Source: Nemertoderma westbladi
Lineage: Eukaryota; Animalia; Xenacoelomorpha
Length of the DNA stretch: 64,000 bases
Reading direction: 5' to 3'
Assembly: GCA_032718475.1 (NCBI GenBank)
Contig: JAUCBJ010008464.1
Span: 71,816-135,815 of the forward strand
The notes under the pieces were generated by a model. It did no database searches and was not told where the DNA came from. It saw only the letters and a list, made by a program, of their open reading frames with translations. Positions 6,956 to 55,500 of this stretch are shown piece by piece. Within the stretch, counting starts at the first letter, position 1; every line of letters begins with the position of its first letter. A program made the translations under genes and the position numbers.

Positions 6956-6959
6956 TCTG

Positions 6960-7281
6960 CGGAGGTTTCTGTACAAAAAGCAGGAGAATCGCTCTGATTG
7001 GTTGACCAAACAAAGAAACACCAGAGAACAAGGAAAAAAGCTACACGTGTACAGATCAGCTGTTAGCTGTCGTCATAGTAACTACACTGTTTCAAGAGGA
7101 TTTTGCGTATTGCGACATAGAATTGCTAATTATGTCCGCTAAAGTACACATACAGAAGAAATGGCTTTTTATGTCCACTAAAACACCAGTACAGTAAGGA
7201 TACGGCCTTTTATGCCTGTTAAACCAACTACAGAGTACTTTACGGGGAAAATAACCGGCTAATTCCGCAAAAGCTTTTACA
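6960..7281 (-). repeat. Copy B 3' LTR (U3 part only, truncated)
   Basis: Matches 17540-17861 with about 5 differences; starts TGTAAAAGCTT on the minus strand directly after the PPT. Confidence 0.92.
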
Positions 7282-10350: not shown

Positions 10351-13300
10351 TTACGTTGGGGAGTCCCTAGATGTTTGTTGGATTAGGGAGGTGGTCGTGG
10401 GAAGAGTATCTTGCCTTCCATAGTTTCCGGACAGTTCTCGGTCTCTTTCCAGTAAACATAAACGACCAACTGGGCGATTGAGCTGCTGTGTCTCGAAGAC
10501 AATTCCAGGTTTCCTCTTCGTCCTGGAATAGTGACGATAGAAACATCGCTTCAAATACACGACGGCCTTACAAAGCCGATTCCATGATCTATAGTGGTCC
10601 ATCGCTCCCGGCAGGAGAGGTGAGAGTCCCGGCGAGACGTCTGGTGTTCAAGATCTCCAGTCTCTCTCTCTGATCTCCACAACAGATCGGTTCGCGGTGG
10701 GGGAGTTTAGATCCACAGCGTCGTCCCTGGCAATGTGTAATACAGACAGATCTATCACGGGTTTAAATAACCTTGATTTACTCGTCCGGGTTTTAGGTTT
10801 GACTTTCTCCGCTCCCTTGGCTTGTCTAATCTCAGCCGTGGTAAGATGGGGAGGCCATTCATCTTCTTTACTTAGGAAGTCGGGTCCACCTAACCAGTCT
10901 GGAGTATCTGTCAGTTCTTGAGGAGTTGCTTTTCTGGAAGCGATGTCGGCTAGATTAATTGTCTTGGGGCAATGTCTCCATTGATCTACATTGGAGTTAA
11001 TATCGTCATTATCTGAGGAGTATGGTGTTCCCTCAGTTGGATCGTCTACCTCACTGCTCTCCACTTCCCATTCTCTTACTTGATATACCTGTTCTTTCGG
11101 TAATCTTTCCATGAGAGTTCTACGGGAAGGGCCAGTAAAGTACCAACCCACTCTAGTTCTTCCCGCATAAGCTTGTAGTGGTTGCGGTTGAGCAGGCCGT
11201 TTCTCCAATGTCTCGAGCGCTTCATGCGCGTTTTGACCGATGAGTATTTGCACTCCAGGGTAATCGGTGTTGAATCTAGGTATTTCAAGCTGCTGGGTGA
11301 AATCGTCCTCATCCCAGTTATAAGGTTCCACTTGGCTGGTAGCGAAGTTCTTTATCGCCACCATTTTTACTGACCTTATACTATGTTCTCCTAGTTCATC
11401 CTGGGGGGTAGACAACGCACCTACATAATAATCCGCTATTACTGTAGATTTCCAAACCTGCATAATTCCTGACATATTTAGCTTAGTTCGGAACTTGGGT
11501 TGTCCAGCAAAGATGTCTTCGGCTAGTTCTTTTTCGATGAATGTTCCTGTGCTACCGGAGTCAAGGAGGGCGTTCACTATATAACTCCTTTTAGGTCCGT
11601 GGACCCTTAACTGTACTACAGGAAATTCTCGGATTCCTACATTGGAAGTTGGCGCTTTCCAAGATGGTTGTCTGTCAGAAGTAGTTAGGGTGAGGTCGCT
11701 GTCTGTGTCTTTTTCATACGTAAGTGCTCGATACACTGCGGTATTTATCATGTAACAGGATTCATCTTCGTCGGAGAATTCATCCGTATAGAATCCTTCC
11801 ATCTCAGAACTTTGGTCAGTGTCGTTCACATCACTGAATTGGACATGTAGTTCGGAATCACTTACCTGACTCTGGCTGTTTCGCTCGAATTCAGTGTGCA
11901 ACAAGATATGATGTTTCGCACCGCACTTTGCACACCTTGTGTCGGAGTAACAGGTTCGCCGTTGGTGTCCTTGTCTGAGGCAATTATAAAACAACCGCTT
12001 ATCCCACATGACTTCCCGTCTCTCCGTTAATGATTTCTTTAGGAATTCATCACACATATTCAAACGGTGGGTCCCGTCACATAGCACACATTTCGGTTTG
12101 ATGTTACTTACCTTATTTTGAGTAACGTTGTGCACACTCGTTCTTTCTTCGGGCTTTCTTACCTGAATTATCTTAGGAGACGTAGGAGGGGTTTTTCTTA
12201 CCTGTTCTCTCCTGTCATTGGTTCGAGACCTGAATTTACTTACGTCTTTGGGCGTTTTGTTGACATAATAAGATCTTTCAGTGTCTTTCCCGCTGTCCTC
12301 TCCTTGAGAAGCCTGGCTTTCGCCGTCGTCGGTATAACACACTGGTGTTACCTTTCTCCTAGAAACGGATTTCTCACTTACCTTGTTTTCCGGTGTCTTC
12401 TCTCTGGACTGCTTTAGGAGCTGTAATTTCACTTCTCCATCTAAGAATGACATGAGATCAGCCATGGTAGGGTCTCGTCGTTGCTGTTCCATCATATATA
12501 ACACTTTCTTATCCCAGCGTGTACCTACTCCACCCTTCGGTAAAGTAGAGGCCACAGCTCCAATAACCATAGAACTCTGATATTCATGAGACTTACCTAG
12601 CCAATCTAATTATCTACAGATCTCCTGAATCTCATCGGAAAACTCTATAATCCCGCTGCTAATGAATTTTCGGGGCACTACCAATTTTGCATACAAATAC
12701 CTAGCTATGTTATTCCTATTACCATACCTGATGTTTAGGGTATCCCAAACTTGTCTTAATCCATCGGGATGTCCAATAAACTTTAACGCCATTAACTTGG
12801 GAGATCCTTCCAAGCACTCGATGAGGAATCTAAGCTTCTCTCCGTTTGATAGCACAGAGTTCTGTATGTTATCTTTGTAATATTCATTAAAAGGTAACCA
12901 TTTCATCTCATCTCCATTGAACTTGACGATCTCTCCCACCTTTACCGCTTGACGGGCTTCGGTTCTAGCCATTTGACGCGTAAAACTTTCTTGGGCCATC
13001 GTGTTATTTAATATCGAGTTATCGGTATATAAATTTCTCCGATTATTATCAAGTCTATATGGGATATCATTGTCAACAGGTTTATAATTACCCTTAATAG
13101 GGTTTACTATAGGAGTTTCCACTTCGCTAGCAGTATAGATGCGTGTAGGCTCCACACCTTGCGCATGAAATACTTCAGACCTAACAGGTTGACACATTGT
13201 TACAGGGGGTGGTGGTATACCCTTTTGTGTATTTACTAATTTATCGCGTTCTAACGCGATACTTTGCTGCACTTCTTGCAACTCTAACCTACTCTCTCTA

Positions 13301-15366
13301 ATTGTTCCCTTTAACTGCTGCACAGTCCCCTCCATCTCCTGGACTTGCTGAGAGGAGCGGGAACGGTGTTCCCTCAGCTGCCCGAGCAGGAGACCCATCT
13401 CCCGTCGTCCCTCATCTACCCACTCGACCGCAGAAGCGGGAGGCGCCAACGTTGTAGCGGGCGGACGAGGGACAACGGGCGACAAATCATTAATATTTCG
13501 CTCGGAGTCCAGGACATGAACATTTTCAAGGGTGGTTCTGTGGGGCACAGGTAGCTTAGTGCTGTGCAGAGGGAATTTAGAGGTAGGTTCAGGGAGTATA
13601 GGTGTCTCTATCACCGAAGGGGTGGCTTCGAGAACAGGCCTAATTATTTCAGACTCATCTACTATAGTAGGGAGTCTTTCTATGTTAATTATTTGGTCTG
13701 TGGGTTCTGTACTACCTAAGTTTGTGTTAGTTAGTTGCCTTCTGACAGCTGGGGGCAAATCAGGCAATTTCTGACGGTGGGACATTCTTCGACGTCTGCT
13801 TAGACGAGATCTATTTCCTCCTCCTTCAGGATCGGTGGTATCGCCTTCCTCAGATGATGTATATCCCTGTCTTTTGGGAGTTGATCGACTCATCATCTGC
13901 ATTTGACTAGCTGTTAACTGTTTATTTATGCAGTCTTGATTCTCCTGAATGTTTTCCAATTCTAGTTGGGTGGTTTCTTCCGATGCTCTCCGTTCTGCTT
14001 CTGCCACTGCCTCTGCCGCTGCCACTGCCGCCTTTCTTTCCGCTTCGGCCGCTGCCACTGCCGCCTTTCTTTCCGCTTCGGCTGCTGCCGCTGCCGCTTT
14101 TCTTTCCGCTTCTGCCTCTGCCGCTGCCGCTGCCGCTGCCGCTTTTCTTTCCGCTTCTGCCGCTGCCACTGCTGCTGCCACTGCCGCTGTCTTTCTGTCT
14201 TCTATACGTTTTTTCTTTACTTGTTCTTCTTGGACCCTAGTGATGCGGAGGCGTTCATCAAATTTAGCTTGGTTCGCAGCTCTCATATCCGCATCGATTG
14301 CGTCCAACACAAGCTTGGCTCCTTCACTATTAGGGCTAAGTCCATCCAGCCATCTCCTCAACTCTTCGTCACCTACAAAGCGTTGATAGTCTGACAGATA
14401 GATGTCAATAGCATCCCTCTTATGCGGTTTCTCTGCTGTCGCTTCACTTTCCACTTGGGAAAAGGTGGCGTCTGTTGATTCTCCAAGGGTTGAGCGCTCA
14501 TCTAACTGAGATTTCCACGGGGCAGTTCTTTGAACTTGGAGACTCACCCGCTGTAACCAAGTCTTTATGGCAACTTGCAACGACGTGTCTTGTCTTCTTT
14601 TCGAAGCCTCCTCAAAGGCCGATAGGATTAGTCTGATTCTTAGAATTCTTTCTCGAACTTGAAAAAGCAGCTCTACCTGCTCTTGAGGTCCTTGTGGTTG
14701 TCTAAACAATTGTTCCTCTAATCGCTCCATGGAGCTGAAGCATCCCTGTACGTATCCGGCTGCTGACCTCTTCCACACAGCTGGATCGCTGGTTTCCTTT
14801 GTCACTCCCATCCTGTGTATGTCTTCCCAGGCAGCTTCAGATAAGTCAAACGGGAGTCCGGGTCCGGGGAAGTTCCATTGCGACTCGACAATAGACTTCA
14901 GTTCTTCCCTTGTATATCCCGCATAACTATCCTTGGTCGATCGCTTACTTCTCGCCCAATCAATCTGGTGTTCCTCCACCGCAATCAATACCCTAGTGAG
15001 TACGGCTGCAGGAAGGATGAGAAGGGGATCCGAATAAACCACATCTGCCATCTTTGCTCCGCACTCAGGTGTCAGCTCTACAGTATCCGCACTACTGGAG
15101 CTGCCGGGCCACTGAGAAATAAGTTCTCGGCTCGCGGGTTGTTGCTGCTCCGCCGCCTCTTGGTCCCGCTTGACCTGAGCTCGAGTGCCTATGATAGACC
15201 TACGATGTTGGACTAGCCTAGGGTCTGATATTACTACTGGGGGAATGATCTTTCTTACAGTAGGAGGTGAGTTGAACTTCGGTCTCACATGTTCCACACT
15301 CCTGTCTGGGTCACAGATGGTCGTATCTAGGAGACTGTCTGACAGGTTTTGCTTTATGTCAGACAT
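10351..15366 (-). pseudogene. gag: BEL/Pao gag-protease with deleted pol (copy B)
   Basis: 918-aa and 640-aa ORFs are split by one nonsense codon (ICR*LDW versus ICRQLDW in copy C). BEL triple zinc knuckle ending CAKCGAKHHILLH, protease ALLDSGS, then RNase H end (QWRHCP..N.ADIASR) and pol C-terminus. Confidence 0.92.
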
Positions 15367-16866
15367 GTTTGTTTGTACAGTTGAATGCCTACTGCTATAT
15401 TACAGTTAAAGCAAGTCTAGTAATTCAGTAATTCAGTATCGCTGTTAGCTTAGTAATTGATTACCGATACTGCTACTCATTGTAGCGTGATATATATATA
15501 ATATATTAGAATACCGGTATGCTTATAGTATATATATAAGTATTATTACAGACTAGGTTTATCACAGAATACCGGTATAGAATTTCAGCACAAATATATA
15601 TAAATATATAATAGGCCTATCGTGAATACCGGTATACAGCTTACACTTATAATGTATATATATAAGTATAATTACAGACTAGAATTAATCACAGAATACC
15701 AGTATATAATTTAGCCTAAATTTATAGAAATAAATATAATAAGCCTATCGCGAATACCGGTATGTCAATTATTTTAAATAATTGAATTTCTGAATTTTTA
15801 GGGGTTACTTGGTTACTTTACTTACTTTATTAACGTTATTTGAGCAGTAGTCCAACTGATATTGAGACCTAATTGTTGTATGGCAGGCCTACTATTTATA
15901 AATCGTTTGAGTTGATTTATAATATATATACCCGTTTAATGGGTTTTTGTCAATATTTGAAATAAATGTTATTATTTCTGGGGGGAGTCACTACACAGAA
16001 GCTGTGCGCTCTCAGTGAAGTGCTACTTGTTGGACACTAAAACAAATAATTCTAATTTACCTAAGTTACTTAATACTACAAATTACGTACAATTTGGTGT
16101 GAGATTACAATCTCTAAATAAACACAAAAAATTACAAGTACGAAATTTTAGGGTAATTTTACAAGAAGTCTACAAACCAGCCTAACAAAGGGTTAGAATA
16201 TCTGGTTATTACAACGGACAGGGTACTACGGTATTTGAAAATAATAAGTAGTAGTAAATATACTGCGTTGTCCAGATAGGAAAAATACCACCGTCTGACG
16301 ACTTATAGCCGTATCGCTATAAGTACTACGTTATGTATCACGGAGTGTTCCTACCTAGAAGTTAATTACCGCGGTCTACCAGAACCAACGTGCCTATTAA
16401 CCACTTTAGAACACAAATATACTGCCTACACACTAATTACCTTCAGAAAGCACTGTACACTAAACCCTAAATTAGGTACAAGTACTTATACAACAAATAA
16501 TCAGTAGTTAAAAATACTTGAACAGCTAAAAGAACCACGGTATCTGCTGGAGTGACCGGGGCACAAAATCACCAGTCTTTACCTATGCCAAGCAGCCCTG
16601 ATGTAGTACCGGGGTTAGTTTAACTATAACGGTATATATAACAAGCACAATTACTGTAGGAATAAACTTGGGGATATGAATGTTGCGAATAATCGCATAA
16701 ACTCTTAATAATAAATATTACGCTACGCGTACAGACTACTCAAACAAAATGCAGACCAAATACTGACAGACTACTATCAAACCTAAACAAATTACGGTAT
16801 ATGCAGACTCCGAAATCCATGCAGACTCCGGTACTTCAGCTTTATTGCCTACCGCAATACAGAAGC

Positions 16867-16878
16867 TATATCTGTTAT
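16867..16878 (-). promoter_or_regulatory. Non-tRNA primer-binding site of copy B (ATAACAGATATA)
   Basis: Abuts the LTR end (...CGCGAACA), has no TGG, and is a perfect 12-bp reverse complement of LTR site 17407-17418. Confidence 0.8.
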
Positions 16879-17861
16879 TGTTCGCGCTTTTAGACCTTTA
16901 GCAGTTTAACCTGCCAAATTGGGATGTCTTCTAGATAATAAATCGACTTTAGCCTATGACGAGTATTTGATACACTACATTAGCCGAAGCCAGTCTATGC
17001 GCGACCATTCACCCGCTGGATATACCCGGGAGACTGGATTCGGAAGCTTAACCTTATTGCGGTGTAGGCCTACTGTATTATTCGACTGATCGTAATATAT
17101 AATCTCTGACAAATATTATTCACTTTCGGGAAATATTAACAGTTCCTTTAGGAACAACAACCAATACATGTAGTGCCTATGAAATAGCATTAGATTCACT
17201 TCAAAAACCACTTTAATGTAAGTCGCAATCGTTATATGTAACTGGTCTCTCTTACCTTCAGTATATCAAGAAGATTGAGGGTTTTGTAATTATTTATCGG
17301 TATTCCAAATATAATAATATTCCATCAACTGATATAATGAATAACCGACAGTAAATAGCAGTAAAAATGCGGTGTTTGTAGTTGACAATATGATTAGGTG
17401 AGTGAGATAACAGATATACGTTCTATAATTAAGCCTACTAATGTTGGGCTAAAGACTGAAAACACAGAGATTCCAAAGCCAGTCTTCTGGGCTCAGGACA
17501 AAATGTACACATTGACCCATAATGCATTGCGCGATTTCTCGGAGGTTTCTGTACAAAAAGCAGGAGAATCGCTCTGATTGGTTGACCGAACAAAGAAACA
17601 ACAGAGAACAAGGAAAAAAGCTACACGTGTACAGATCAGCTGTTAGCTGTCGTCATAGTAACTACACTGTTTCAAGAGGATTTCGCGTATTGTGACATAG
17701 AATTGCTAATTATGTCCGCTAAAGTACACATACAGAAGAAATGGCTTTTTATGTCCACTAAAACACCAGTACAGTAAGGATACGGCCTTTTATGCCTGTT
17801 AAACCAACTACAGAGTACTTTATGGGGAAAATAACCGGCTAATTCCGCAAAAGCTTTTACA
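16879..17861 (-). repeat. Copy B 5' LTR (983 bp)
   Basis: TGTAAAAGCTT...AAAAGCGCGAACA on the minus strand, same termini as the TSD-defined LTRs of copy C; contains a CCAAT box. Confidence 0.92.
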
Positions 17862-18515
17862 AAGGGAACGGTGGAGTGCTTGCAATGTGGTGGATTTCGG
17901 CTAAACAAATTCACTAGTAACTCCCGTGAGTTTTTGGAACGATCCTGGTAGAAGACCGAGGTGTTAAAGATCTGGATCTCATCAAGGACGATCTTCCAGA
18001 AACCAAAACACTTGGCTTAAAATGGGACACGGAGAGAGATATCGTGTTTTTCCAGTTAAAACAGCGAGATAATCCAGTTAGAACTAAACGGATTTGTCTA
18101 AGTATCCTGAGCACTTATTTCGATCCATTGGGATTTATTAGCCCAGTTATATTAGTTGCTCGGAGCTTAGTGCAACAAATGTGGCTCGAAAACCACTCGT
18201 GGGATGATCCACTTAAGGGAGAATTGCTAAAGAAGTGGATGAAATGGGAAGATTCTCTACCATCCATTGAGAACTTTATTATTTCCCGTTCATATTTTGG
18301 TAACGTTCTCCCCACATATTCCTATCAACTCCATGTGTTTGGAGACGCCAGCGATATGGGAATAGGTATAGTAGCCTACCTGAGGGTTGAAACTCCGGAT
18401 GGAATTAAAGTTGCCTTGGTCACCTCTAAGGCCTTGATAAACAACAAATTACGAGTTCCTCGAGCGGAGTTAAAGGCGGCTCTATACGCTACAGCCATCG
18501 GTCGGAATGTAACAG

Positions 18516-18924
18516 TAACAATGTGTTGGCAAGCTGTATTTTTCGAGGTGTTTGTTATTATACATTATATTATAAGAAGGGATCTAGGGGTCTTAACCTC
18601 GAATGATAAGTTTATTTTACCGAAAATAACTTATCTTTTATTGGCGCAATTGTAGGACTAATCCCATCACATGCGTACTTTTTAACCGGGTAGTGTACAA
18701 ATTTAGGAATCGCGTAATTTTTTTTTTTTTTTTTTTTTTTTCTTGAAATTAATATCTCATATCTCTCCAAACCACGTATGCGTTTCGACCTTACTGGGTC
18801 TCATCAGCGTGGTGTCGGATTCGAACCTGGGACCTCGAGGCGGAAGCCGAGACTACTTATTTTCGGTAAAATAAACTTATCATTCGAGGTTAAGACCCCT
18901 AGATCCCTTCTTATAATAAAATGT
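18516..18924 (-). mobile_element. Short retroposed insert with B-box, hammerhead motif, poly(A) and ~63-bp inverted repeat
   Basis: 12-bp TSD GGAATGTAACAG (18504-18515 and 18925-18936) interrupting pol; inverted repeat ~18567-18629 versus ~18857-18919. Confidence 0.8.
18771..18813 (-). ncRNA. Minimal type I hammerhead ribozyme motif (possibly degenerate)
   Basis: Minus strand reads ACCACG CTGATGA GACC cagtaa GGTC GAAA CGCATA CGTGGT: intact core, 6-bp stem I, 4-bp stem II, vestigial stem III. Confidence 0.8.
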
Positions 18925-21763
18925 GGAATGTAACAGAACAGATCGACTATCCACTGGAGAAAACTGTCTATTGGACTGATGCTTTACTCGTTCTGGAGTA
19001 TATAACAAATGAAGTCTGTCAGTTCAGCGTTTTCGTTACCAACAGAGTAGCCATTATACTTAGTCGCTCTAATGTAGATCAATGGAGACATTGCCCTGGG
19101 ACGATTAATCCAGCCGACATCGCTTCCAGAGGAACAACTCCTCAAGAACTGATAGATACTCCGGACTGGTTAGGTGGACCCGACTTCCTAAGTAAAGAAG
19201 AGCATGAATGGCCTCCTCATCTCACCACGGCAGAGATTAGACAAGCCAAGGGAGTGGAGAAAGTCAAACCTAAAACCCAGACGAGTAAATCAAAGTTATT
19301 TAAACCCGTGATAGATCTGTCTGTACTACAGATCTCTGGGGATGACGCTGTGGATCTTAACTCCCCCACCACGAACAAATCTGTTATAGAAATCAGGGAA
19401 AGAGACTGGAAATCTGGAACACCAGATGTCTCGCAAGGACTCTCCCCTCTCCTGCAGAGAGCAATAAATCATTATAGCTCCTGGAATCGGCTTTGCAAGG
19501 CCGTTGTGTATCTTAAAAGATGTTTCCATCATCACTATTCCAGGCCAAAGATCGCTAGTGATACCGCTACAATAATATCCGAAAAGGTCCATGCTATTAA
19601 AGACCTTCCCGCTTATAAAGTGTCTGATAGGTTTCTGAATGAGAAGATCAGTTACCAAGAGCATGAATATATCAATAAGCAGATACTGAGACTCCTGCAA
19701 TGCTATGAAGATTCCGATAAGTATTTCCTGTTGTTGAGAAATCCACAGATGCATTTGAGGGATCGTTTCTCTAGCACAATGATAGATGGGTTAATACGTG
19801 TCGGAGGGAGATTAACTAATGCTCCATTGTCCTTTGACACTAAGTTTCCCATACTCATTAGAAATCTTGAAATACAAATCAAGATGATTGTAGATGTTCA
19901 CAGTAGACTTTACCATGCTGGTAGAGAACTGGCTATTATTTCCATAAACCCCGCAGAGCTCTGAACCAAGTTCTTAGGAACTGTATACCCTGTAGGAAAG
20001 CATTCAGTAGGCCTTTAACACAGCGAGAGGCAGAATTACTTAGGGAACGAGTAAGCTTCTATGAACCACCCTTTACCAATACTGGGGTGGATTTATTTGG
20101 CCCTATTGAAGTATATCGTGCTAGGACTATAGTCAAGCGATGGTGTGTCATCTTTGTCTGTATGACTTGTAGAGCGATCCATCTAGATATGGTGAACGAT
20201 CTATCTACCAACAGCTTCATACTGAGTTTACGCCGACAGATCGCTCGTTTTGGGACTAGCAACACTATGAGATCCGACAAAGGAACGAACTTCATTGGCC
20301 AATAATGAGATCAAAGCTTACTTGAAAGATTGGAACCAAAGACAGGTGGACGATCAGCTAAGGATAACGGCATCTAGCTGGACCTTCAATGCCGCCGACG
20401 CCCCTTGGTGGGGAGGAAGTTGGGAGAGATTAATACGGAGTGTGAAGACCGCATTTCACTTTATAGTGCCGTGCCGCGCGTATCTCACTGACGAACTTTT
20501 GCGGACGTTAATGGAAGAAATGCCGCCTATCTTAACGAGAGACCGCTTATGCCAGTCTCATCGAGTCCCGACTCCCTAGAAGCGCTGACACCCACGCATT
20601 TCCTACTAAAGAAACCTGTAGCCATGCTCCCGTAATCGGAAATCACGGACGGAGACGAATACTACCGACAAACTTGGCAACTTATGCAGTTGTTATCCCG
20701 TCGTTTCTCTGACCATTTCGAAAAACATTATCTTCCTACACTACAACTTCGAACAAAGTGGTTTGCGCAGCAAGAAAACGTCAGCGCCGGAGACATGGTC
20801 CTTATTGTGGAATCAGATCTTCCACGTAAGAGGTGGCAGACAGGTCATATCATCGCGACTCATATATCCGATGATGGTTTAGTGCGATCGGTAAAACTCG
20901 TCGTCATGCGACGTAACTTTAAGAAACCTGGAATTGTATTCGAAACACAACAACTTAATCGCCCAGTTGGTCGTTTATGTTTACTGGAAAGAGACCGACA
21001 GTTATCCGGAAACTATGGAAGGCAAGATACTCTTCCCACGACCACCTCCCTAATCCAACAAACATCTAGGGACTCCTCAACGTAACAGCGTTTGGAGTGG
21101 GTGTGTGACTACATTATTTTATATATTTTTATCATTTTTATATTTATGTATGTATTATTATGTAATTTTATTATTATAATCGTTTTCTTTAATTTTATTT
21201 AGTAGAATAATATTTTAACGATTATTCAGTAGATTAGTGCAATATATATTCGTGTTTATTACTTAATTACTTAGCATTATATATTTCGTTTAATGGCGAG
21301 AAATAATTCATTTTCTGTTTCCTTACTGTCCGTATCATACTATAAATATGTGACTACAGTAAGATGAAATGTCCATACTTCTTAAAAGTACAATACCGTC
21401 CCTACTTTACTCAAGTATTATTGGTAAGTAGAGTATTAGGAATGCAATGTTCAGATCCTCGTGTCTCGGCTAAACCAAGCTCTGGGTAGACCTTGGAAAC
21501 GACTTGCCTCTTCTCACTGACATTGCTTCTTGCAATATTGCTCACATACCGTATATTAAATAATACATATAGTAGAATGATGTCCATTTAACAGTAGCGT
21601 AAAACGCAAAATAAATCTGTTAAACCCTTTGACCATCTGAAATTCTAGTCGATTAAGATATCGCGGCACCCACCGATATACTTGAAAGACAAAATTCTAG
21701 AATCAGTGGTTAACGTCCCCAAACATGTTCTGGAATAAATCGGTGCCCATCTTAAATATTAAA

Positions 21764-26665: not shown

Positions 26666-26743
26666 TAGTTTAGAGTATTTTTGTATTTTAGAAACTGTGA
26701 TTTTTTATATTTTATAGACTTAAATCCCATTTTCTGGGAGCGG

Positions 26744-27842
26744 TGTAAAAGCTTTTGCGGACATAACAAGTCATTTTTCCGCAATGCGCAGAATACTCTA
26801 AAATAGCCCTAAATTTATCCAACTACGCGACGGGAAGGAATTAAAGCCAGTATGACGAAATCTGTCAGCTGATTTCTTGTGGACGTGGAATTTCTTTGTT
26901 CTGCCTTATTCAGCCAATCAGAGCAATTTTCCCTTTATGTCTGACAGAGGCCTATGGAAACTCGCGCAATGCATTACGGTCTTTGTTTACTATTTTTCTG
27001 AGCATCAGAACCTGCTCGGAATCTTCTGTGCTTCTGTGTAGAATTTTCAGACTTTGGCCTAGGAAACATCAGATGGCCTTGATTATAATAACGTAAATCT
27101 ATTATCCTACTTAATCACCGCATCACATTTCATCATTATCAACTACATTTCATAACTGCATAAGTAACACATACTGACAGTTCACCGCATTATTTTACTT
27201 CTGTTATTAATTGTTGTTATATTAATGGATATTGGTGTTATATTTGGAGAATACCGATAAATAATCATAAACCCCTCAATCTTCTTAATTACTGAGTTAA
27301 GAGGAACAGGTTTTTCCGGTAGCAACTGCGACTTAAATTATAGTGGTTTTTGTGTGAATTAAATGCTATTTCATAATCCCTACGTGTGTCAGTTGCTATC
27401 CTCCTTATATATGATCAAATTTAGTGAAGGTCGGAAGATCAGTGCTAAGTAGTGTGAAGTAGTGTGAAGTCGTGTGAATTAGTGTGAAGGTTAATAAAGC
27501 ATCTCCTAAAGAATGCGCTATTTACAAAACTCTGAGGCCATCTAGTTGTGATTAGTATAAGTCATAAGTCATTTTATACTTAAAGCGCCACGCCTTAAAG
27601 GAACTGTTAATATTTCCCCGAAAGTAAATATATTTGTCAGAGATTATATAGTAACGATCAATCGAATAATACAGTAGGTCTACACTGCAATAACTCTCAA
27701 GGAATCCGAATCCAGTCTCCCAAATCGTGGGTGATAGGTCGCGCACGGACTGGCTTCGGCTGATGTAACTTCAGTACACTAGATAATTGATATAGGCTAA
27801 AGTCGATTTATAAACAAGAGGACAACTAAAATTGGCAGGTTA
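26744..27842 (+). repeat. Copy A/D 3' LTR (lacking the last ~30 bp)
   Basis: TGTAAAAGCTTTTGCGG directly after the PPT; CCAAT box; U5 homologous to B and C up to ttggcaggtta. Confidence 0.9.
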
Positions 27843-28904
27843 GGGGAGACTGGATTCGGGTGCTTTGAAGTTATTGCGTTGCAGACCTACTGTATTATTC
27901 GATTGATCGTTACTATATAATCTCTGACAATATTATTCACCTTCGGGGAAATATTAACAGTTCCTTTAGGACGTGGCGCTTTAAGTATATAAACAGAGTT
28001 ATGACTTATATTAAACACAACAAGATGGCTACTGATTTTCGTAAATAGCACATTCTTTAGGAGATGATTTATTATCTGTCACACTGCTGCATACGATTTC
28101 ACACTGCTGCACACTGATCTGCCGACCGTCACTGAATTTGACCATATATAAGGAGGATAGCAACTGACACATGTAGGGATTATGAAATAGCATTTAATTC
28201 ACACTAAAACCACTATAATGTAAGTCGCAATTGCTACCGGTAACCGGTCCCTCTTACCTTCAGTAATCAAGAAAATTGGGGTTTTATGATTATTTATCGG
28301 TATTCTCCAAATATAACAACATATCCATCAACATATAACAATTAATAACAGACAGTAAACAGAAGTAAAATAATGCGGTGATAGTCAGCCAGTATCGGTA
28401 ATACCGGTACGCAGGTGCCAAGTTCAGTAGTTGAGTTGAGTGTGGCCCAGTTGTTATGGTTTGTTGCACAGTTGCACAGTGCAGTCAGCCAGTTGACAAG
28501 ATAATAGATTTACGTTCCTATAATCAAAGCTGTCTAATGTTGGCCAAAGTCTGAAACTTCTACAGAAGCACAGAAAAATTCCAAAGCCGATGTTCTGAGG
28601 CTCAGGAAATGGTAAACACTAACACTGAATTGCGTGGGTTTCTGTAGGCTCCTTTCAACGCAAAGTGAAAATCGCTCTGATTGGCCGAACAGAACAAAGA
28701 GAAGTTCCATGTGTACAGTCTTTAGAGTATTAAGCGCATTGCGGTAAAGTAAGGCACGGTATACTGCGGGGAAAATGGCTTGTTATGTCCGCTAAAGCAC
28801 CCCACGGTACATTGCGGAGAAAAATGGCTTGTTATGTCCGCTAAAACAACTAAACAGTTCATTGCGGAGAAAAATGACTTGTTATATCCGCAAAAGCTTT
28901 TACA
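27843..28904 (-). repeat. Inverted, 3'-truncated LTR of a fourth family member (E)
   Basis: Begins TGTAAAAGCTTTTGCGG on the minus strand at 28904; reverse-complement homolog of 26744-27720; no PPT in the flank. Confidence 0.88.
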
Positions 28905-38143: not shown

Positions 38144-38308
38144 TGTGAATGAGGATTAGCGGGAGATTTGAACTATGTTTTACATGTGTAAGCTTGACAG
38201 TATTAGTGGTACAGTATGGTACAGTAGTCAGACAGTAAAGGGATACCAGTACGGTATTACCTAGTGCAATATGCTTTACAATATGCTTGTTGTTATATCG
38301 CATTAACA
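38144..38308 (+). repeat. Copia 5' LTR
   Basis: Near-identical to 55336-55500; preceded by CAATG. Confidence 0.96.
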
Positions 38309-38318
38309 TGGTAGCAGA
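38309..38318 (+). promoter_or_regulatory. Copia PBS, complementary to the initiator tRNA-Met 3' end
   Basis: TGGTAGCAGA immediately after the LTR. Confidence 0.85.
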
Positions 38319-38582
38319 AGCCAAACCACAGGGTGTTGATAATGGTACCAGTGTCTGGGCTATAACATACCTGAATTAATGTCGGAGATAACGTTTAATT
38401 TAAAGTACTGGTACAGAAATTAAACTTCAAGACATATTGTCAGTATCCTGTTATATCAGTATATTGTTAGATTGTTATCCAGCGGGAAATAAACGTATGG
38501 TACCGGTACTGTATACCAAACAATCTAAATACCAATATACCGATACGTATAAGACTGTAAGATATAGATAATAACTAATGCA

Positions 38583-39782: not shown

Positions 39783-41028
39783 TGTAAAAGCTTCTGTGGG
39801 ATCTAACTGGCCCCTTTTGCTTCGCAATCCAGTTTCCCCCCAGGGGCTGGAATACTCTAAAAAGGTTCTCTAACTGTATATATATTCCCCTCGCCCGCAA
39901 GGTACCGTTACAGGTGTTTTAACGGACATAAAAGTCATTCTGCTATATACGTGTTTTGGCGGACATGGTAAGGCAAAAAACCTGTAATGCACCAACTACC
40001 TTTCACAGCTTAGCCGTGATGATTCATATTACGACATCTAACAGCTGGTTGCTGACATGGAAACAGCCATTGGATGCATGGTTCTTTGTTCGGCTTGAGC
40101 CAATCAGAGCGATTTTTCCTGTCGACGTGTAGCTTTTCGGTCGATCATAAGGAGAGTGTTCAGTCTTACTGCTTTTACTTGATACTTTGTTGTTATTGCT
40201 GTCTAAGCCAGAAACACCGGCTTTTTGGGAAGAACTCTAGTAAAACTGCTTAAATTATCGAAAGTATAAACTGTTACCTTAACAAATCAATAACTCACTA
40301 ATTAACATGCTCACTTAATTTAATTGCATTAATCATATTGTTTGTACTGTTATTTTACCGTCAGTTATTAATTGTACCTATTTGTTGATGGAAATATTGC
40401 TCTTTGGATAATACGGATAAATCACCCAAATTCCCAATTTTCTTGATACACTACAGGTTAGAGAGACCGGCTATACATAACAATTGCGATTTATATTAAT
40501 GTGGTGTGTATTGAATCCAATGTTATTTAGCAGACCCTACGTGAGTCAATTGCTGCTCTCTTTATGTGTGATCAAATATACTGACGGTCGGCAGAATAGT
40601 GTGTATGATTGTGATTGGTAACAAAGTATTTCCTAAAGAATACGTTTTATACTTCAATCATAAGCAGTATCGTTGCGTTTTAGTATAAGTCTTAGTTCTG
40701 TTTAGATAGATAGAGCGCCACGTCCTAAAGGAACTGTTAATATTTCCCGAAAGCCAATAATATCTGTCAGAAATTAATTATTAACGATCTATCGAATAAT
40801 ACAGTAAGTTTACACTGCAACCTTACACTGCAATAATAAAATTTAAGCATCCGAATTCAGCCTCCCGGGTGTAGATCCATCGGGTGAATGATCGCGCATG
40901 GGCTGACTTCGGCTAATGTTTTGTGTATTAGCATAAAATATTGTCGTATGCTAAAGGTGTTTTTATTAACTAAAAGACATATAAATTTTGGCAGGTTAAA
41001 CTGCTAAAGGTCTTCAAAAGCGCGAACA
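39783..41028 (+). repeat. Copy C 5' LTR (1246 bp)
   Basis: Direct repeat of 50611-51853, differing by one substitution and one short local replacement that I could see. Confidence 0.97.
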
Positions 41029-41041
41029 GTAACAGTTTATA
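41029..41041 (+). promoter_or_regulatory. Non-tRNA primer-binding site of copy C (GTAACAGTTTATA)
   Basis: Abuts the LTR, has no TGG, and is a perfect 13-bp reverse complement of LTR 40265-40277 (TATAAACTGTTAC). Confidence 0.82.
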
Positions 41042-41377
41042 ATCTTATTGCAGTAGGCAATAAGGTTGCAAAATACCGTAGTGACTGGTAAAACTGAACC
41101 GGTACTTTGTAGGTCAGTAGGCCTAACTGTCATCACCGGTACCGGTACTGCTGTACAAGTACATTTAGTATTATTCGATTTGATTATTGTATACTGGTAG
41201 GTCTTAGTACTTAATCAGGGACTGCAGCCCTGAATTTTTATTGAGATTTTACCTATTTCTGTCGGTTTTATTTCCTAGTAGGCTAATATTGAGCAGAAGG
41301 CGTGTGACCCTGCTCAGATTGTTCAGATAATTGTAGGCTGAGCTGCTGTCTGACTGTTGTTGAGTTTGGAGAGATTA

Positions 41378-41910: not shown

Positions 41911-43207
41911 TTATTCGCAACATTCATGTCCCCAAGTTTATTCCTACAGTAATTGTGCTTGTTATACATACCGTTATAGTTAAACTAACCCCGGTACTAC
42001 ATTAGGGCTGCTTGGCGTAGGTAAAGACTGACGACTTTGTGCTTCGGTCACTCCAGCAGATGCCGTGGTTCTTTTAACTGTTCAAGTATATTTAACTACT
42101 GATTATTTGTTATACCGGTACTTGTACCTAATTTAGGGTTTAGTGTACAGTGCTTTCCGAAGTAATTAGTGTAGGCAGTATATTTGTGTTGTAAAGTGGT
42201 TGATAGGCACATTCGTTAGCTCTATTAGCTTCTGGGTAGGAACAATCCGTGATACATAACGTAGTACCTATAGCGATACGGTTATAGGTCGTCAGGCGGT
42301 GGTATTTTCCTATCTGGACAGTACAATATATTTACTACTTATTATTTCAAATACCGTAGTACCCTGTCCGTTGTAATAACCAGAATTCTAACCCTTTGTT
42401 AGGCTGGTTTGTAGACTTCCTGTAAAATTACCCTAAAAATTTCGTACGTAATATTTTGTTGTGTTTAATTAGAGAATTAATCTCACCAGTATAGTAAGTA
42501 ATTTGTAGTATTAAGTAACTTAGGTAAATTATAATTATCAGTTTTAGTGTCAAATAAATAGCACTTCACTGAGAGGCGTTCAGCTTCTGTGTAGTGACTC
42601 CCCCAGAAATAATAACATTTATTTCAAATATTGACAAAAACCCATATAACGGGTATATAAATATTATAAATCAACTCAAACGATTTATAAATAGTAGGCC
42701 TGCCATACAACAACTAGGTCTCAATATCAGTTGGACTGCTGCTTAAATAACGGTAATAAAGTAAGTTAAAGTAACCAAGTAACCCTAAAATATTCAGAAA
42801 TTCAATTATTCTAAAATAATTGACATACCGGTATTTACCATAGGCTTATTATATTTATTTCTATAAATTTGAGCTGAAATCATACCGGTATTCTGTAATT
42901 AATTCTAGTAATAATTATACTTATATATACTATAAGTGTCAGCTGTATACCGGTATTCACGATAGGCCTATTATATATTTATATATATTTGTGCTAAAAT
43001 TATATACCGGTACTCTGTGACAAATCTAGTCTGTAATAATACTTATATATATATTATAAGCATACCGGTATTCTAATATATTATATATATATCACGCTAC
43101 ACTGAGTAGCAGTATCGGTAATTAATTATTAGGCTAACAGTGATACTGAATTACTAGACTTGCTTTAACTGTAATATAGCAGTAGGCGTTCGACTGTACA
43201 ATCAAAC

Positions 43208-46200
43208 ATGGCTGACACAAGGCAAACTCTGTCAGATAGTCTCCTAGAAACAACAGCCTGTTTCTCAGATCAAAGTGTAGAGAATCCCAGACCGAGGTCT
43301 GAAACCCCTCATACTGTAAGAAGGGCAACCCCTGCAGTGGTTGTGACAGAACCTAGGTTGGTAGAAAAGATTTCGCAATTTGCGAAGTTAGTGAAGCGCC
43401 GTTGGTCTGCCATAGGCACTCGGGCCCAAGTCAAGCGGGATCAAGAAGAAGCTATAAAACAGCAGCAACCTCCTAGCCAAGAACCTAGTTCTCAGCGGCC
43501 CGATAGCTCCAGTAGTTCGGATACTGTTGAGCGGACGCCCGAACGCGGAGCGAAGATGGCGGATACGGTTTATGATGGGCGGCCAGCCTGTGGGGAATCA
43601 ACCGACGCCACTTCTTCTCAAGTGGAAAGTGAGGTGGAAGGCGAAGTGGAAAGTGAGGTGGAAGGCGAAGTGGAAAGTGAGGTGGAAAGCGAAGTGGAAA
43701 GCGAGGTGGAAAGCGAAGTGGAAAGCGAATTAACATCAGCAGAGAAGCCGCGAACTAGAGACGCTATCGACATTTATTTGTCCGACTATCAGCGATTCCT
43801 AGGAGACGAAGAGTTGAGGAGACGGCTGTCTGGACTTTCCCCTAATAGTGAAGGAACCAAGCTTGTGTTGGACTCAATCGATGCCGAAATGTCAGCTGCA
43901 AACCAAGCTGAATGTGATGAAAAACTCCGCCTCATTAGAGTCCGAGAAGAACAAATAAAGAAAAGAAGGATAGAGGAACAAAAGGCGGCGGCTATGGCGG
44001 AGGCTATAGCAGATGCAGAAGCAGAAAGAAAGGCAGCGGCGGCAGAAGTAGAAGCAGAAAGAATAGCAGCAAAGGCAGCGGCGGCAGATGCAGAAGCAGA
44101 AAGAAAAGCAGCAAAGGCGGCGGCTGCGGCAGATGCAGAAGCAGAAAGAAAGGTGGCAAAGGCAGTGGCAGAAGCAGAAAGGAGAGCATCTGAGCAGACT
44201 ACCCAACTGGAGTTGGAGAATCTGCAAGAGACACAAGACAGTATAAATAAACAGTTTACTGCTAATCAAATGCAGATGATGAGAAAATCTACTCCCAAGC
44301 GCCAGGGGTACACATCCTCGGAGGAAGGCGATACTACCGACCCTGAAGGCGGAGGAAATAGATCTCATCTAAGTAGGCGTAGAAAAACATATTACCGTCG
44401 CAAATTGCCTGATTTGCCCCCAGCTGTTAAAAGACAGCTAACTAGCACAGATTTAGGTAGTGCAGAACCCATAGAACAATTTATCCAGGTCAAAAGACTC
44501 CCTACTATAGTCGATGAACCTGAAATAATTAGGCCTGTAGTTCCCAAAGTCACTTCTGTGCTAGAGACCCCTACACTTCCAGAGCTTAACTCTAAATTCC
44601 CTTTACATAGCACTACACTGCCTGTACCCGGTGGAACAGTCCATGCAAATACCCCTGTCCAGATAGCAGAGAGAGAAATCAATAATTTGTCTCCCGTCGT
44701 CCCGCGTCAGCCCGCTACTATGTTGGTGACTCCCGCTTCGGCGGTTGAGTGGGTGGAAGAGGGACGGCGGGGGATGAATCTCCTGCTAGGACAGATGCAG
44801 GAGACTGTCCACCAACTTAAGGGAACAGTGAGGGAAGGTAGAGCAGAGTTGCAAGAAGTGCAACAAAGTATCGCGCTAGAACGCGACAAATTAGTCAATA
44901 TACAAAAAGGCATACCAATGCCCCCTGTAACATTGTGTCAACCTGTTAGGTCTGAAGTACTACATGCGCAAGGTGTGGAGCCTACACGCATCTATACTGC
45001 TAGTGAAGTTGAAACTCCTATAGCAAACCCTATTAAGGGTGATTATAGACCTGTTATTAATGATATTCCCTATAGACCTGATAATGATCCGAGAAATTTA
45101 TATACCGATAATTCGATATTAAATAACACGATGGTCCAAGAAAGCTTTACGCGTCAGATGGCTAGAACAGAAGCCCGCCAAGCGGTCAAAGTGGGAGAGA
45201 TCGTCAAATTCAATGGAGACGAGATGAAATGGTTACCTTTCAACGAATATTACAAAGATAGCATACAGAACTCTGTACTATCTAACGGAGAGAAACTTAG
45301 ATTCCTCATCAAGTGCTTGGAAGGACCTCCCAAGTTAATGGCGTTAAAGTTTATTGGACATCCAGATGGATTAAGACAAGTTTGGGATACACTAAACATC
45401 AGGTATGGTAACAAGGATAACATAGCTAAGTATTTGTATGCAAAATTAGTAGCCCCCCGACACTTCCTTAGTAGTGGGATTATAGAGTTTTCCGATGAAA
45501 TTCAAGAGATCTGTAGACAACTGGACTGGTTAGGTAAGTCGCACGAATATCAGAGTTCCATGGTTATTGGAGCCGTAGTCTCTACTTTACCAAAGGGTGG
45601 AGTATGTACACGCTGGGACAAGAAAGTGTTGTACATGAATGAACAACAACGACGAAGTCCTACCATGGCTGATCTCATGTCTTTCTTAGATAGTGAAGTA
45701 AAATTACAACTCATAAGGCAGTCCAGAGAGAAAACATCGGAAAATAAGGTAAGTGAGAAACCCGTTTCTAGGAGAAGGATAATACCAGTGTGTTATACTG
45801 ACGACAGCGAAAGTCAAGCTTCTCAAGAAGAGGACAGCGGGAAAGACACAGCAAAATCTTACTATGACAACAAGACCTATAAAGACGTAAGTAAATACAA
45901 GTCTCGAACCAGTGACAGGAGAGAACAGGTAACAACAACTCCTCCTACGTCTCCTAAGAGAATTCACGGAAGAAAGCCCGAAGAAAGAACGAGAGTGCAG
46001 AACGTTAACCAAGTTAAGGTGAGTAACATCAAACCAAAATGTGCGCTGTGCGACGGGCCCCACCGTTTGAGTGCGTGTGCTGAATTTCTAAAGAAATCCC
46101 CTGTAGACAGACGTACAGTCCTGTGGAATAAGCGGTTATGCTATAATTGCCTCAGATCAGGACACCAACGGCGAACCTGTTACTCCGACGTAAAGTGTGC

Positions 46201-47470
46201 AAAGTGTGGCGCGAAACATCACATCTTGTTACACAGTGAGTTCGAACGAGACAACCCGAGTCAGGCAAGTGAGCCCGAACTACATGTCCAATTCAGTGAT
46301 GTGAACGACACTGACCAAGGTTCTGAGTGGGAAGGATTCTATACAGACGAATTCTCCGATGCCAACGAATCCTGTTATCTAATAAATACCACAGTGTATC
46401 GAGCACTTACGGATGAAAAGGACACTGACGAGTTTACTCCAACTCCTTTTGACAAACAACCATCTTGGAAAGTTCCGACTTCCAACATAGGAATAAGAGA
46501 ATTTCCTGTAGTGCAAGTTCGAGTTCATGGTCTTAACAAGAGTTACATAGTGAACGCCCTACTTGACTCCGGCAGCACAGGAACTTTCATCGATCAAGAA
46601 CTAGCCGAAGATATCTTTGCTGGACAACCCAAGTTCCGGATTAAATTGAATATGTCAGGAATTATACAGGTTTGGAAATCTACCCTAACGGCAGATTACT
46701 ATGTAGGTGAGTTGTCCACCCCCCAGGATAAATTAGGAGCACAAAGTATAAGGTCAGTAAAAATGGTGGCTATAAAGAACTTCGCTACTACCCAAGCAGA
46801 CCTTTATAACTGGGACGAGGACGAGTGCATCCAACATCTTGAGATACCTCGATTCCAAACCGATTATCCTGGAGTGCAAATCCTCATCGGCCAAAACGCG
46901 CATGAGGCGCTCGAGACATTGGAGAAACGGCCTGCTCAACTGCAGCCATTACAAACTTATGCGGTAAGAACTAGAGTAGGTTGGTACTTTACTGGCCCTT
47001 CCCGCAGAACTCTTGAAGAAAGATTGCCACAAGACCGGCTACTTCAAGTAAAGGATTGGGAAGAGGGGAGCAGTGAAGTGGACGAACCCACTGAGGTAAC
47101 ACCATACTCCTCAGATAATGACGATATTAACTCCAATGTAGATCAATGGAGACATTGCCTTGGGACGATTAATCCAGCCGACATCGCTTCCAGAGGAGCA
47201 ACTCCTCAAGAACTGATAGATACTCCAGGCTGGTTAGGTGGATCCGACTCCTTAAGTAAAGAAGAAGAAGAATGGCCTCCTCATCTTACCACGGCAGAGA
47301 GTAGACAGGCCAAGGGAGCGGAGAAACTAACACAACAACTCAATCGCCCAGCTGGTCGTTTATGTTTACTGGAAAGAGACCGAAAACTGTCCGGAAACTA
47401 TGGAAGGCAAGATACTCTTCCTACGACCACTTCCCTAATCCGACAAATATCTAGGGACTCTATAACGTAA
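43208..47470 (+). CDS. gag: BEL/Pao gag-protease polyprotein (1420 aa) fused in frame to short RNase H-end and pol C-terminal remnants
   Basis: Open ORF with KFNGDEMKWLPF (DUF1759-like), CALCDGPHRLSAC / CYNCLRSGHQRRTC / CAKCGAKHHILLH and ALLDSGS; no RT or integrase motifs. Confidence 0.93.
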   Translation: MADTRQTLSDSLLETTACFSDQSVENPRPRSETPHTVRRATPAVVVTEPRLVEKISQFAKLVKRRWSAIGTRAQVKRDQEEAIKQQQPPSQEPSSQRPDSSSSSDTVERTPERGAKMADTVYDGRPACGESTDATSSQVESEVEGEVESEVEGEVESEVESEVESEVESEVESELTSAEKPRTRDAIDIYLSDYQRFLGDEELRRRLSGLSPNSEGTKLVLDSIDAEMSAANQAECDEKLRLIRVREEQIKKRRIEEQKAAAMAEAIADAEAERKAAAAEVEAERIAAKAAAADAEAERKAAKAAAAADAEAERKVAKAVAEAERRASEQTTQLELENLQETQDSINKQFTANQMQMMRKSTPKRQGYTSSEEGDTTDPEGGGNRSHLSRRRKTYYRRKLPDLPPAVKRQLTSTDLGSAEPIEQFIQVKRLPTIVDEPEIIRPVVPKVTSVLETPTLPELNSKFPLHSTTLPVPGGTVHANTPVQIAEREINNLSPVVPRQPATMLVTPASAVEWVEEGRRGMNLLLGQMQETVHQLKGTVREGRAELQEVQQSIALERDKLVNIQKGIPMPPVTLCQPVRSEVLHAQGVEPTRIYTASEVETPIANPIKGDYRPVINDIPYRPDNDPRNLYTDNSILNNTMVQESFTRQMARTEARQAVKVGEIVKFNGDEMKWLPFNEYYKDSIQNSVLSNGEKLRFLIKCLEGPPKLMALKFIGHPDGLRQVWDTLNIRYGNKDNIAKYLYAKLVAPRHFLSSGIIEFSDEIQEICRQLDWLGKSHEYQSSMVIGAVVSTLPKGGVCTRWDKKVLYMNEQQRRSPTMADLMSFLDSEVKLQLIRQSREKTSENKVSEKPVSRRRIIPVCYTDDSESQASQEEDSGKDTAKSYYDNKTYKDVSKYKSRTSDRREQVTTTPPTSPKRIHGRKPEERTRVQNVNQVKVSNIKPKCALCDGPHRLSACAEFLKKSPVDRRTVLWNKRLCYNCLRSGHQRRTCYSDVKCAKCGAKHHILLHSEFERDNPSQASEPELHVQFSDVNDTDQGSEWEGFYTDEFSDANESCYLINTTVYRALTDEKDTDEFTPTPFDKQPSWKVPTSNIGIREFPVVQVRVHGLNKSYIVNALLDSGSTGTFIDQELAEDIFAGQPKFRIKLNMSGIIQVWKSTLTADYYVGELSTPQDKLGAQSIRSVKMVAIKNFATTQADLYNWDEDECIQHLEIPRFQTDYPGVQILIGQNAHEALETLEKRPAQLQPLQTYAVRTRVGWYFTGPSRRTLEERLPQDRLLQVKDWEEGSSEVDEPTEVTPYSSDNDDINSNVDQWRHCLGTINPADIASRGATPQELIDTPGWLGGSDSLSKEEEEWPPHLTTAESRQAKGAEKLTQQLNRPAGRLCLLERDRKLSGNYGRQDTLPTTTSLIRQISRDSIT

Positions 47471-50584: not shown

Positions 50585-50610
50585 ACTTAAATCCCATTTT
50601 CTGGGAGCGG

Positions 50611-51853
50611 TGTAAAAGCTTCTGTGGGATCTAACTGGCCCCTTTTGCTTCGCAATCCAGTTTCCCCCCAGGCGCTGGAATACTCTAAAAAGGTTCTCTA
50701 ACTGTATATATATTCCCCTCGTGTTTTAACGGTTATCGGTGTTTTAACGGACATAAAAGTCATTCTGCTATATACGTGTTTTGGCGGACATGGTAAGGCA
50801 AAAAACCTGTAATGCACCAACTACCTTTCACAGCTTAGCCGTGATGATTCATATTACGACATCTAACAGCTGGTTGCTGACATGGAAACAGCCATTGGAT
50901 GCATGGTTCTTTGTTCGGCTTGAGCCAATCAGAGCGATTTTTCCTGTCGACGTGTAGCTTTTCGGTCGATCATAAGGAGAGTGTTCAGTCTTACTGCTTT
51001 TACTTGATACTTTGTTGTTATTGCTGTCTAAGCCAGAAACACCGGCTTTTTGGGAAGAACTCTAGTAAAACTGCTTAAATTATCGAAAGTATAAACTGTT
51101 ACCTTAACAAATCAATAACTCACTAATTAACATGCTCACTTAATTTAATTGCATTAATCATATTGTTTGTACTGTTATTTTACCGTCAGTTATTAATTGT
51201 ACCTATTTGTTGATGGAAATATTGCTCTTTGGATAATACGGATAAATCACCCAAATTCCCAATTTTCTTGATACACTACAGGTTAGAGAGACCGGCTATA
51301 CATAACAATTGCGATTTATATTAATGTGGTGTGTATTGAATCCAATGTTATTTAGCAGACCCTACGTGAGTCAATTGCTGCTCTCTTTATGTGTGATCAA
51401 ATATACTGACGGTCGGCAGAATAGTGTGTATGATTGTGATTGGTAACAAAGTATTTCCTAAAGAATACGTTTTATACTTCAATCATAAGCAGTATCGTTG
51501 CGTTTTAGTATAAGTCTTAGTTCTGTTTAGATAGATAGAGCGCCACGTCCTAAAGGAACTGTTAATATTTCCCGAAAGCCAATAATATCTGTCAGAAATT
51601 AATTATTAACGATCTATCGAATAATACAGTAAGTTTACACTGCAACCTTACACTGCAATAATAAAATTTAAGCATCCGAATTCAGCCTCCCGGGTGTAGA
51701 TCCATCGGGTGAATGATCGCGCATGGGCTGACTTCGGCTAATGTTTTGTGTATTAGCATAAAATATTGTCGTATGCTAAAGGTGTTTTTATTAACTAAAA
51801 GACATATAAATTTTGGCAGGTTAAACTGCTAAAGGTCTTCAAAAGCGCGAACA
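50611..51853 (+). repeat. Copy C 3' LTR (1243 bp)
   Basis: Follows the PPT; ends CGCGAACA then TSD GCAAT. Confidence 0.97.
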
Positions 51854-51858
51854 GCAAT

Positions 51859-55155: not shown

Positions 55156-55335
55156 ATTGATGTTTTGATGCTATAATAACTCCAATGTCCCAAGTTTAAA
55201 TTTGAATAATGAAATATTTTTGGGGAGCTATCGCAAGTGTGACGGGTTGAGATTTACTTGGTAATTATTTATTTACTTAATATGTGAACTGAGGTGGTGG
55301 TTACCTATTAATATTATTAGAAAGTTATGGGAGTA

Positions 55336-55500
55336 TGTGAATGAGGATTAGCGGGAGATTTGAACTATGTTTTACATGTGTAAGCTTGACAGTATTAGTG
55401 GTACAGTATGGTACAGTAGTCAGACAGTAAAGGGATACCAGTACGGTATTACCTAGTGCAATATGCTTTTCAATATGCTTGTTATTATATCGCATTAACA
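55336..55500 (+). repeat. Copia 3' LTR
   Basis: Follows a purine-rich tract; followed by CAATG. Confidence 0.96.

Follow-up and report, generated by a model that had tools for sequence, protein, structure and literature searches.

What primes reverse transcription in an LTR retrotransposon whose primer-binding site (PBS) position carries no TGG and is the exact complement of a segment of the element's own LTR? The question is raised by two copies, B and C, in a 64,000-nucleotide stretch of the Nemertoderma westbladi assembly (the window; contig JAUCBJ010008464.1), which consists of repeat-rich eukaryotic DNA with LTR elements nested within one another.

Copies B and C and their family

Copy C spans 39783-51853 on the forward strand and is inserted within a copia element, and copy B spans 17861-6960 on the reverse strand. 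They share the window with a sister copy (D) and an LTR fragment (E); in window coordinates, the parts of these elements are:

6960..7281, reverse strand: 3′ LTR remnant of B, cut after 322 bp, over which it is 98.4% identical to the 5′ LTR; truncated before the primer site
10648..15399, reverse strand: gag (DUF1759) and protease-like ORFs of B, split by a stop; RT, integrase and most of RNase H absent
16879..17861, reverse strand: full-length 5′ LTR of B, 983 bp, TG...CA
17862..20860, forward strand: broken pol remains of D, with a Pao Peptidase_A17 region, the RNase H end and integrase
26744..27843, forward strand: 3′ LTR of D, its end missing; primer-site position (27094-27105) occupied by a third sequence type, the PBS of D lying outside the window
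27844..28904, reverse strand: LTR fragment E, tail to tail with D; shares the third type with D (28512-28501) and has no PBS within the window
39783..41028, forward strand: 5′ LTR of C, 1246 bp, with the 5-bp target duplication GCAAT
43175..47470, forward strand: gag (DUF1759)-protease ORF of C; RT, integrase and most of RNase H absent
50611..51853, forward strand: 3′ LTR of C, 98.9% identical to the 5′ LTR; primer site repeated at 51090

The BEL/Pao hallmarks of TG...CA LTRs, a polypurine tract and a 5-bp target duplication are present, with C complete and B retaining one full and one cut LTR. Both gag matches to DUF1759 exceed the Pfam cut-off (E 8e-12 in C, 5e-7 in B). The family is placed in BEL/Pao by the Peptidase_A17 (E 4.5e-34) and integrase remains of D, together with the presence of PF05380 in 26 of the 26 homologs listed. 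In B and C themselves, pol is reduced to protease and a short distal RNase H remnant, and no RT of this family lies in the window. Judged by these domains and ends, B and C are non-autonomous BEL/Pao (Belpaoviridae) LTR retrotransposons. In a tree of the RNase H region (85 rows), the branch of the window's element is long and its placement poor, which gives no lineage (Sinbad, Suzu or other). The family is very high-copy, with 8210 contigs on 1 kb in sequencing run X1; the conserved 23-nt LTR motif had 0 matches among metagenome contigs, no relatives were found in viral contigs, and the BEL/Pao polyprotein gave no match against phages.

Several further observations concern the content of the window. 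Copy C holds ~3 kb of additional sequence ahead of its 3′ LTR, and in this region a 365-codon frame (49487-50584, forward strand) contains several Cys/His knuckle-like motifs; it has no Pfam match, and its Atlas scores, all under 0.9, lean loosely toward zf-CCHC proteins. Because only its last third finds partial matches in D (26240-26714) and B (7487-7311), the frame may be the remnant of a captured gene. A gag fragment, A (4411-6956), and the pol fragment of D (17862-27843) look like a single element interrupted by B, and an apparent later deletion joined the gag of A to the interior of B's 3′ LTR at 6956-6960. At 27843/27844 the LTRs of D and E meet tail to tail, both shortened before the LTR end. 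The gag proteins carry a long N-terminal extension with Ala/Glu-rich tandem repeats (43175-44200 and 13985-14220) whose copy number varies among A, B and C. Elsewhere, terminal inverted repeats of 226-236 bp (94-95%) flank an internal tandem duplication at 32403-33516, resembling a non-autonomous DNA transposon, and a 31-bp tandem array at 686-1366 is ~98% homogeneous.

Complementarity at the PBS position and tRNA-type controls

The sites compared, and an internal control, are:

16867..16878, reverse strand: PBS-position sequence of B, ATAACAGATATA; zero spacer after the LTR, no TGG
17407..17418, reverse strand: candidate self-primer of B, 12 nt, exact complement of the PBS
17571..17581, reverse strand: CCAAT box motif of B, common to all LTR types in the window
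38144..38321, forward strand: 5′ LTR of the copia element hosting C, with a canonical TGG tRNA-type PBS directly after it (internal control)
40265..40277, forward strand: candidate self-primer of C, 13 nt, exact complement of the PBS
41029..41041, forward strand: PBS-position sequence of C, GTAACAGTTTATA; zero spacer after the LTR, no TGG

Published predictions of self-priming call, in the part of the source used here, for at least 10 bp of LTR complement beginning 0-5 bp after the LTR and for no tRNA match (PMC6317226). In B and C, 12 of 12 and 13 of 13 bases match the own LTR at offset 0, which lies within this range. An earlier reading of the window from its letters (the sequence-only reading) had placed the B post-LTR sequence at 16878-16867 and its exact complement at 17418-17407, ~160 bp past the CCAAT box. 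Both positions hold, the complement has no other occurrence in the window, and the distance to the CCAAT box is 163 bp in B and 165 bp in C. The same reading had B differing from C by substitutions and an indel that recur in the LTR, and the alignment bears this out: the B and C primer sites fall in one alignment column block, and the copies differ at the PBS by two substitutions and a gap, as they do at the LTR site. When the partners are crossed, the match drops to seven bases (B PBS against C LTR) and five bases (C PBS against B LTR). The copies agree in all of the last 38 aligned LTR bases and then differ in 3 of the 13 columns of the adjacent PBS. Position 16879 is set independently as the LTR end by contigs whose loose ends carry mixed flanks: 18 from X1, 21 from X3 and 5 from X4.

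Dinucleotide shuffles of the LTR reached an equal match in 6 of 5000 cases for B and in 0 of 5000 for C. The interior of C holds three unrelated 12-mers complementary to the LTR, so a length of 12 is not in itself extreme and position is decisive: among 9577 (B) and 9562 (C) internal start positions, the longest LTR complement begins at position 1 after the LTR. The complementarity between PBS and LTR site is real and well beyond chance. It would be of no consequence for replication if the inverted repeat had been homogenised at the DNA level by template switching or had arisen by chance, a reading to which the single available contrast (B vs C) lends some room. We consider it very improbable, given arms of 12-13 bp that lie 540-764 bp apart, a PBS that abuts the LTR end in B and C alike, and an identical site in both LTRs of C, which makes the match older than the insertion.

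The copies carrying both PBS and LTR site number two (B and C), and two X5 contigs show further PBS-position types. The PBS predicted from the third type of D and E was neither seen in the sequencing-run contigs nor excluded by them, these contigs being too short to link a PBS with its LTR site.

No TGG was found in the 45 bases following each LTR of B and C, and neither copy carries an 18-nt PBS for a host tRNA 3′ end of the kind that the ICTV gives for Belpaoviridae (tRNA-Arg or tRNA-Gly; PMC8742986). The sequence-only reading had concluded that a fixed host tRNA cannot explain the PBS, and for a full-length tRNA we arrive at the same result, because the site is non-TGG and mirrors its own LTR through substitutions and an indel. 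Fragments of host tRNAs could still be imagined as primers, with an incidental LTR complement, as tRNA halves prime the copia elements Osser, Bryco and Bianca according to the part of PMC6317226 used here. Such priming would call for as many fragments as there are PBS types (those of B and C and the two further ones in the X5 contigs) and, in addition, two coincidences at aligned sites (6/5000 and 0/5000), and it is the least probable of the readings considered. The window contains no tRNA gene, and the 80 BEL/Pao loci described below yielded one, doubtful.

As controls, we used these 80 BEL/Pao loci from metagenome contigs, of which 54 were tested for LTR pairs and 33 had them; 15 of the 33 were dropped, their ends not being fixed by TG...CA and a 5-bp duplication. 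In all 18 that were left, TGG occurs within 0-8 nt of the LTR and the best self-complement is 3-7 nt, although the 18 share one assembly prefix and thus cannot count as separate hosts. Inspection by eye showed TGG-type sites in several further loci. A crude scan of 68 of the 80 loci, which are distant (~30-40% protein identity), revealed no convincing self-complementary PBS, and thus no self-priming relative outside the family of B and C was found here.

Two side observations concern elements with a tRNA-type PBS. The copia element at 38144-55500, interrupted by C, has 165-bp LTRs that are 98.8% alike, a 5-bp target duplication and a TGG PBS, which we take to recall the GalEa type of copia. 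In the tRNA-primed control loci L009, L015, L016, L017, L019, L026, L052 and L063, the LTR itself repeats the first 8-11 PBS bases on the same strand, 50-170 bp ahead of the true PBS.

Predicted folding and a proposed self-priming mechanism

The segments entering the predicted folds are:

16838..16867, reverse strand: local hairpin after the PBS of B (competing fold), -10.0 kcal/mol
16851..16859, reverse strand: leader segment of B, predicted either to pair with 17063-17055 or to form the 5′ arm and loop of the local hairpin
16999..17004, reverse strand: U5 segment of B, partner by folding of the LTR end 16887-16882 (5′ of the PBS)
17055..17063, reverse strand: U5 segment of B, predicted partner of the leader 3′ of the PBS, 9 bp perfect
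40827..40836, forward strand: U5 segment of C, predicted partner of the leader 41045-41054, 10 bp perfect
40892..40897, forward strand: U5 segment of C, partner by folding of the LTR end 41020-41025
41040..41068, forward strand: local hairpin after the PBS of C (competing fold), -12.3 kcal/mol

The cognate primer:PBS duplexes are calculated at -11.8 (B) and -13.9 (C) kcal/mol, compared with -6.4 and -5.7 kcal/mol for the crossed pairs. In a modelled RNA starting at the LTR site, the primer:PBS pair probabilities are 0.54-1.00 in B and 0.50-1.00 in C, and whether folded at 37 or at 20 C, each copy is predicted to pair at ~0.5-1.0. The duplex terminates precisely at the closing CA of the LTR, where a minus-strand primer is required to end.

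The three-duplex arrangement known as the pretzel is a pseudoknot and was modelled solely by blocking primer and PBS. With these set aside, the U5:leader pair probabilities are 0.56-0.88 (B) and 0.73-1.00 (C), and those between U5 and the LTR end are 0.85-1.00 (B) and 0.71-0.98 (C); in unblocked folding the U5:leader duplex falls to 0.00-0.08 and the local hairpin side is preferred. Singly, the duplexes are modest: the perfect-run length of the U5:leader duplex was equalled in 35 (B) and 18 (C) of 2000 shuffles, its energy in 3 of 300 shuffles for B but 100 of 300 for C, and the LTR-end duplex in 20 (B) and 49 (C) of 500. Moreover, the C leader pairs better when crossed (-21.6 with the B LTR vs -14.6 with its own). 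The U5:leader duplex also contains a double-sided change, G16853:C17061 in B vs A41052:T40829 in C, which copying from a primer could not produce. Folding predicts that both PBS flanks pair with two aligned U5 segments in the nested order of a Tf1-like three-duplex pretzel.

The sequence-only reading had described a hairpin directly after the PBS that co-varies between the copies. A hairpin does fold in both, at -10.0 (B) and -12.3 (C) kcal/mol; B and C have the same 6-bp core, and the outer stem shows, by eye, two double-sided changes and one single-sided change, a count that depends on the register around B's 3-nt bulge. In the sequencing-run contigs the core stays and the loop length varies (by eye). 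However, the hairpin and the U5:leader duplex make use of a common 5′ arm and are therefore competing folds; once primer and PBS are set aside, this arm is predicted to prefer the U5 segment, and the local hairpin is probably an alternative fold to the U5:leader duplex.

We propose, with a probability of roughly two in three, that B and C prime reverse transcription with a piece of their own RNA in the manner of Tf1, from the 5′ end of the transcript; self-priming in some form is clearly more probable still. By analogy with Tf1, transcription would start at the LTR site, and folding predicts that the 5′-terminal RNA segment folds back onto the PBS while the flanks pair with the U5 segments. 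RNase H supplied in trans would then cut after base 12 or 13, and the freed primer 3′ end, sitting exactly at the terminal CA of the LTR, would be extended. Later, plus-strand synthesis, modelled here on the general retroviral scheme, would copy the retained primer and thereby rewrite the PBS in each cycle.

Rewriting of this kind would explain both the mirrored indel and the sharp ends of the match on both sides. It also bears on the earlier claim that the changes in B are compensatory and give independent support to the pairing. The mirrored changes themselves stand and still point to the LTR segment as the primer, but one family supplies just one contrast, B vs C. Copying from the primer is the likely reason why the PBS follows the LTR, in which case mirroring requires no selection and the differences between the copies do not reflect classical compensatory, independent selection.

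The main doubt about a Tf1-type start concerns the promoter. No TATA box was found ~30 bp upstream of the LTR site, and TATA-like words occur, by eye, at the site itself in C and as a hexamer only ~10 bp upstream in B, D and E, which would place the start downstream of the site. The same LTR segment might act as a self-primer from within a longer or spliced RNA whose start lies upstream. In favour of this, the CCAAT box, 163-180 bp upstream, is rather far away if transcription starts at the site; B, D and E carry, by eye, an acceptor-like, pyrimidine-rich TTTCAG motif ~40-45 bp ahead of it; and the B helix withstands 60 additional upstream bases. In C, however, the acceptor-like motif is absent and the predicted helix is lost (0.00) when the same length of upstream sequence is added; the match is contiguous and makes splicing unnecessary, and its 5′ boundary is abrupt in B and C alike, as would be expected of copying that ran off the end of an RNA. 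We regard priming from an internal segment as unlikely.

Less likely again is a pairing of purely structural function, for circularisation via the 3′ LTR copy or as a packaging or translation switch, in which the LTR site would be promoter DNA and some other primer would be used. The TATA-like character of the site or its upstream neighbour and the competition of two folds around the PBS would suit such a role. Yet the duplex ends at the terminal CA, the sole place where a minus-strand primer must end, and the 45 bases that follow the LTRs of B and C show no alternative primer site. Furthermore, a structural pairing would tolerate wobbles and bulges, yet both matches are exact, including the indel.

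The chances are about even that the complete Tf1 machinery, with primer, RNase H-cut duplex and three-duplex pretzel, arose independently in a BEL/Pao lineage together with a two-state leader switch between U5 duplex and local hairpin. As a separate observation, a splice-donor-like motif lies at aligned positions in B (17255, reverse strand) and C (40457, forward strand), ~165-190 bp downstream of the primer site, and also in E; an intron beginning there would remove the PBS and could yield a separate gag mRNA.

Proposed self-priming in BEL/Pao and known systems

Self-priming as such is a known mechanism: it has been described for gypsy elements (Tf1/sushi, Tcn1) and predicted for the copia elements TAR and Houba, as far as the parts of the sources used here extend (PMC6317226, PMC4600332, PMC6934838, PMC5443660, PMC3601003). 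New is its probable occurrence in BEL/Pao, for which no report came up in the open-access literature searched. A term look-up in the available text of the Sinbad paper (PMC554778) and of a BEL/Pao survey (PMC3118150) returned no PBS or tRNA text, and the accessible parts of PMC8220671 and PMC13524379 added nothing on BEL priming. With two complete copies and predicted folds as its basis, the arrangement in B and C is best explained as self-priming; also new here is the predicted pairing of both PBS flanks with two aligned U5 segments.

With a BEL/Pao case, self-priming would reach a third superfamily, in animals, and tRNA-independent priming would become a repeatedly evolved solution; should the full Tf1 apparatus be present, self-priming would be convergent across all three superfamilies of LTR retrotransposons. 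The proposal predicts an RNA 5′ end at a known base, a cut after base 12 or 13 and RNA remaining on the cDNA, and the very high copy number of the family offers many natural variants for testing the linkage of PBS and primer. Annotation tools that demand a tRNA PBS would overlook such elements.

B and C resemble Belpaoviridae (Semotivirus) in their DUF1759 gag, TG...CA LTRs and 5-bp target duplication and, through D, in the Peptidase_A17 region; the order protease-RT/RNase H-integrase is probably shared as well. They differ from them in the absence of the 18-nt tRNA PBS, in lacking RT and in the ~3 kb of extra sequence ahead of the 3′ LTR. The sequence criterion by which Tcn1 (gypsy) and the plant copia elements TAR/Houba/Osr-1 count as predicted self-primers, as far as the sources used here show, also picks out B and C. 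These elements belong to another superfamily and host kingdom and, like B and C, are predictions rather than experiments.

The closest parallel is the Tf1/sushi group (Tf1/Tf2 of Schizosaccharomyces pombe, Tj1, Tosmo1-3), in which, according to the portions of the literature used here, the PBS directly after the 5′ LTR likewise complements an LTR segment. In Tf1, the first 11 RNA bases pair with the PBS and RNase H cleaves after them (PMC7175516, in part), compared with 12-13 in B and C. In about half of the Tf1 cDNA ends the PBS is a copy of the primer that was retained, and ATAAC, the first five bases of the B PBS, also opens that of Tf1 (PMC11042837, in part). Self-priming of Tf1 needs the three-duplex pretzel of primer:PBS and two flanking duplexes (10.1101/2022.12.06.519325, in part), and the two duplexes joining PBS-adjacent sequence to the LTR downstream of the primer have predicted counterparts in B and C. 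Start site and RNase H cut have been demonstrated for Tf1 and are proposed for B and C. In contrast to Tf1, primer and PBS are 540-764 nt apart in B and C, an upstream TATA box is absent, and a local leader hairpin competes with one flanking duplex. The Tf1 group consists of Ty3/gypsy chromoviruses, and the domains of B and C are those of BEL/Pao, with no chromovirus RT or integrase: the two copies would work like Tf1 without being members of its group.
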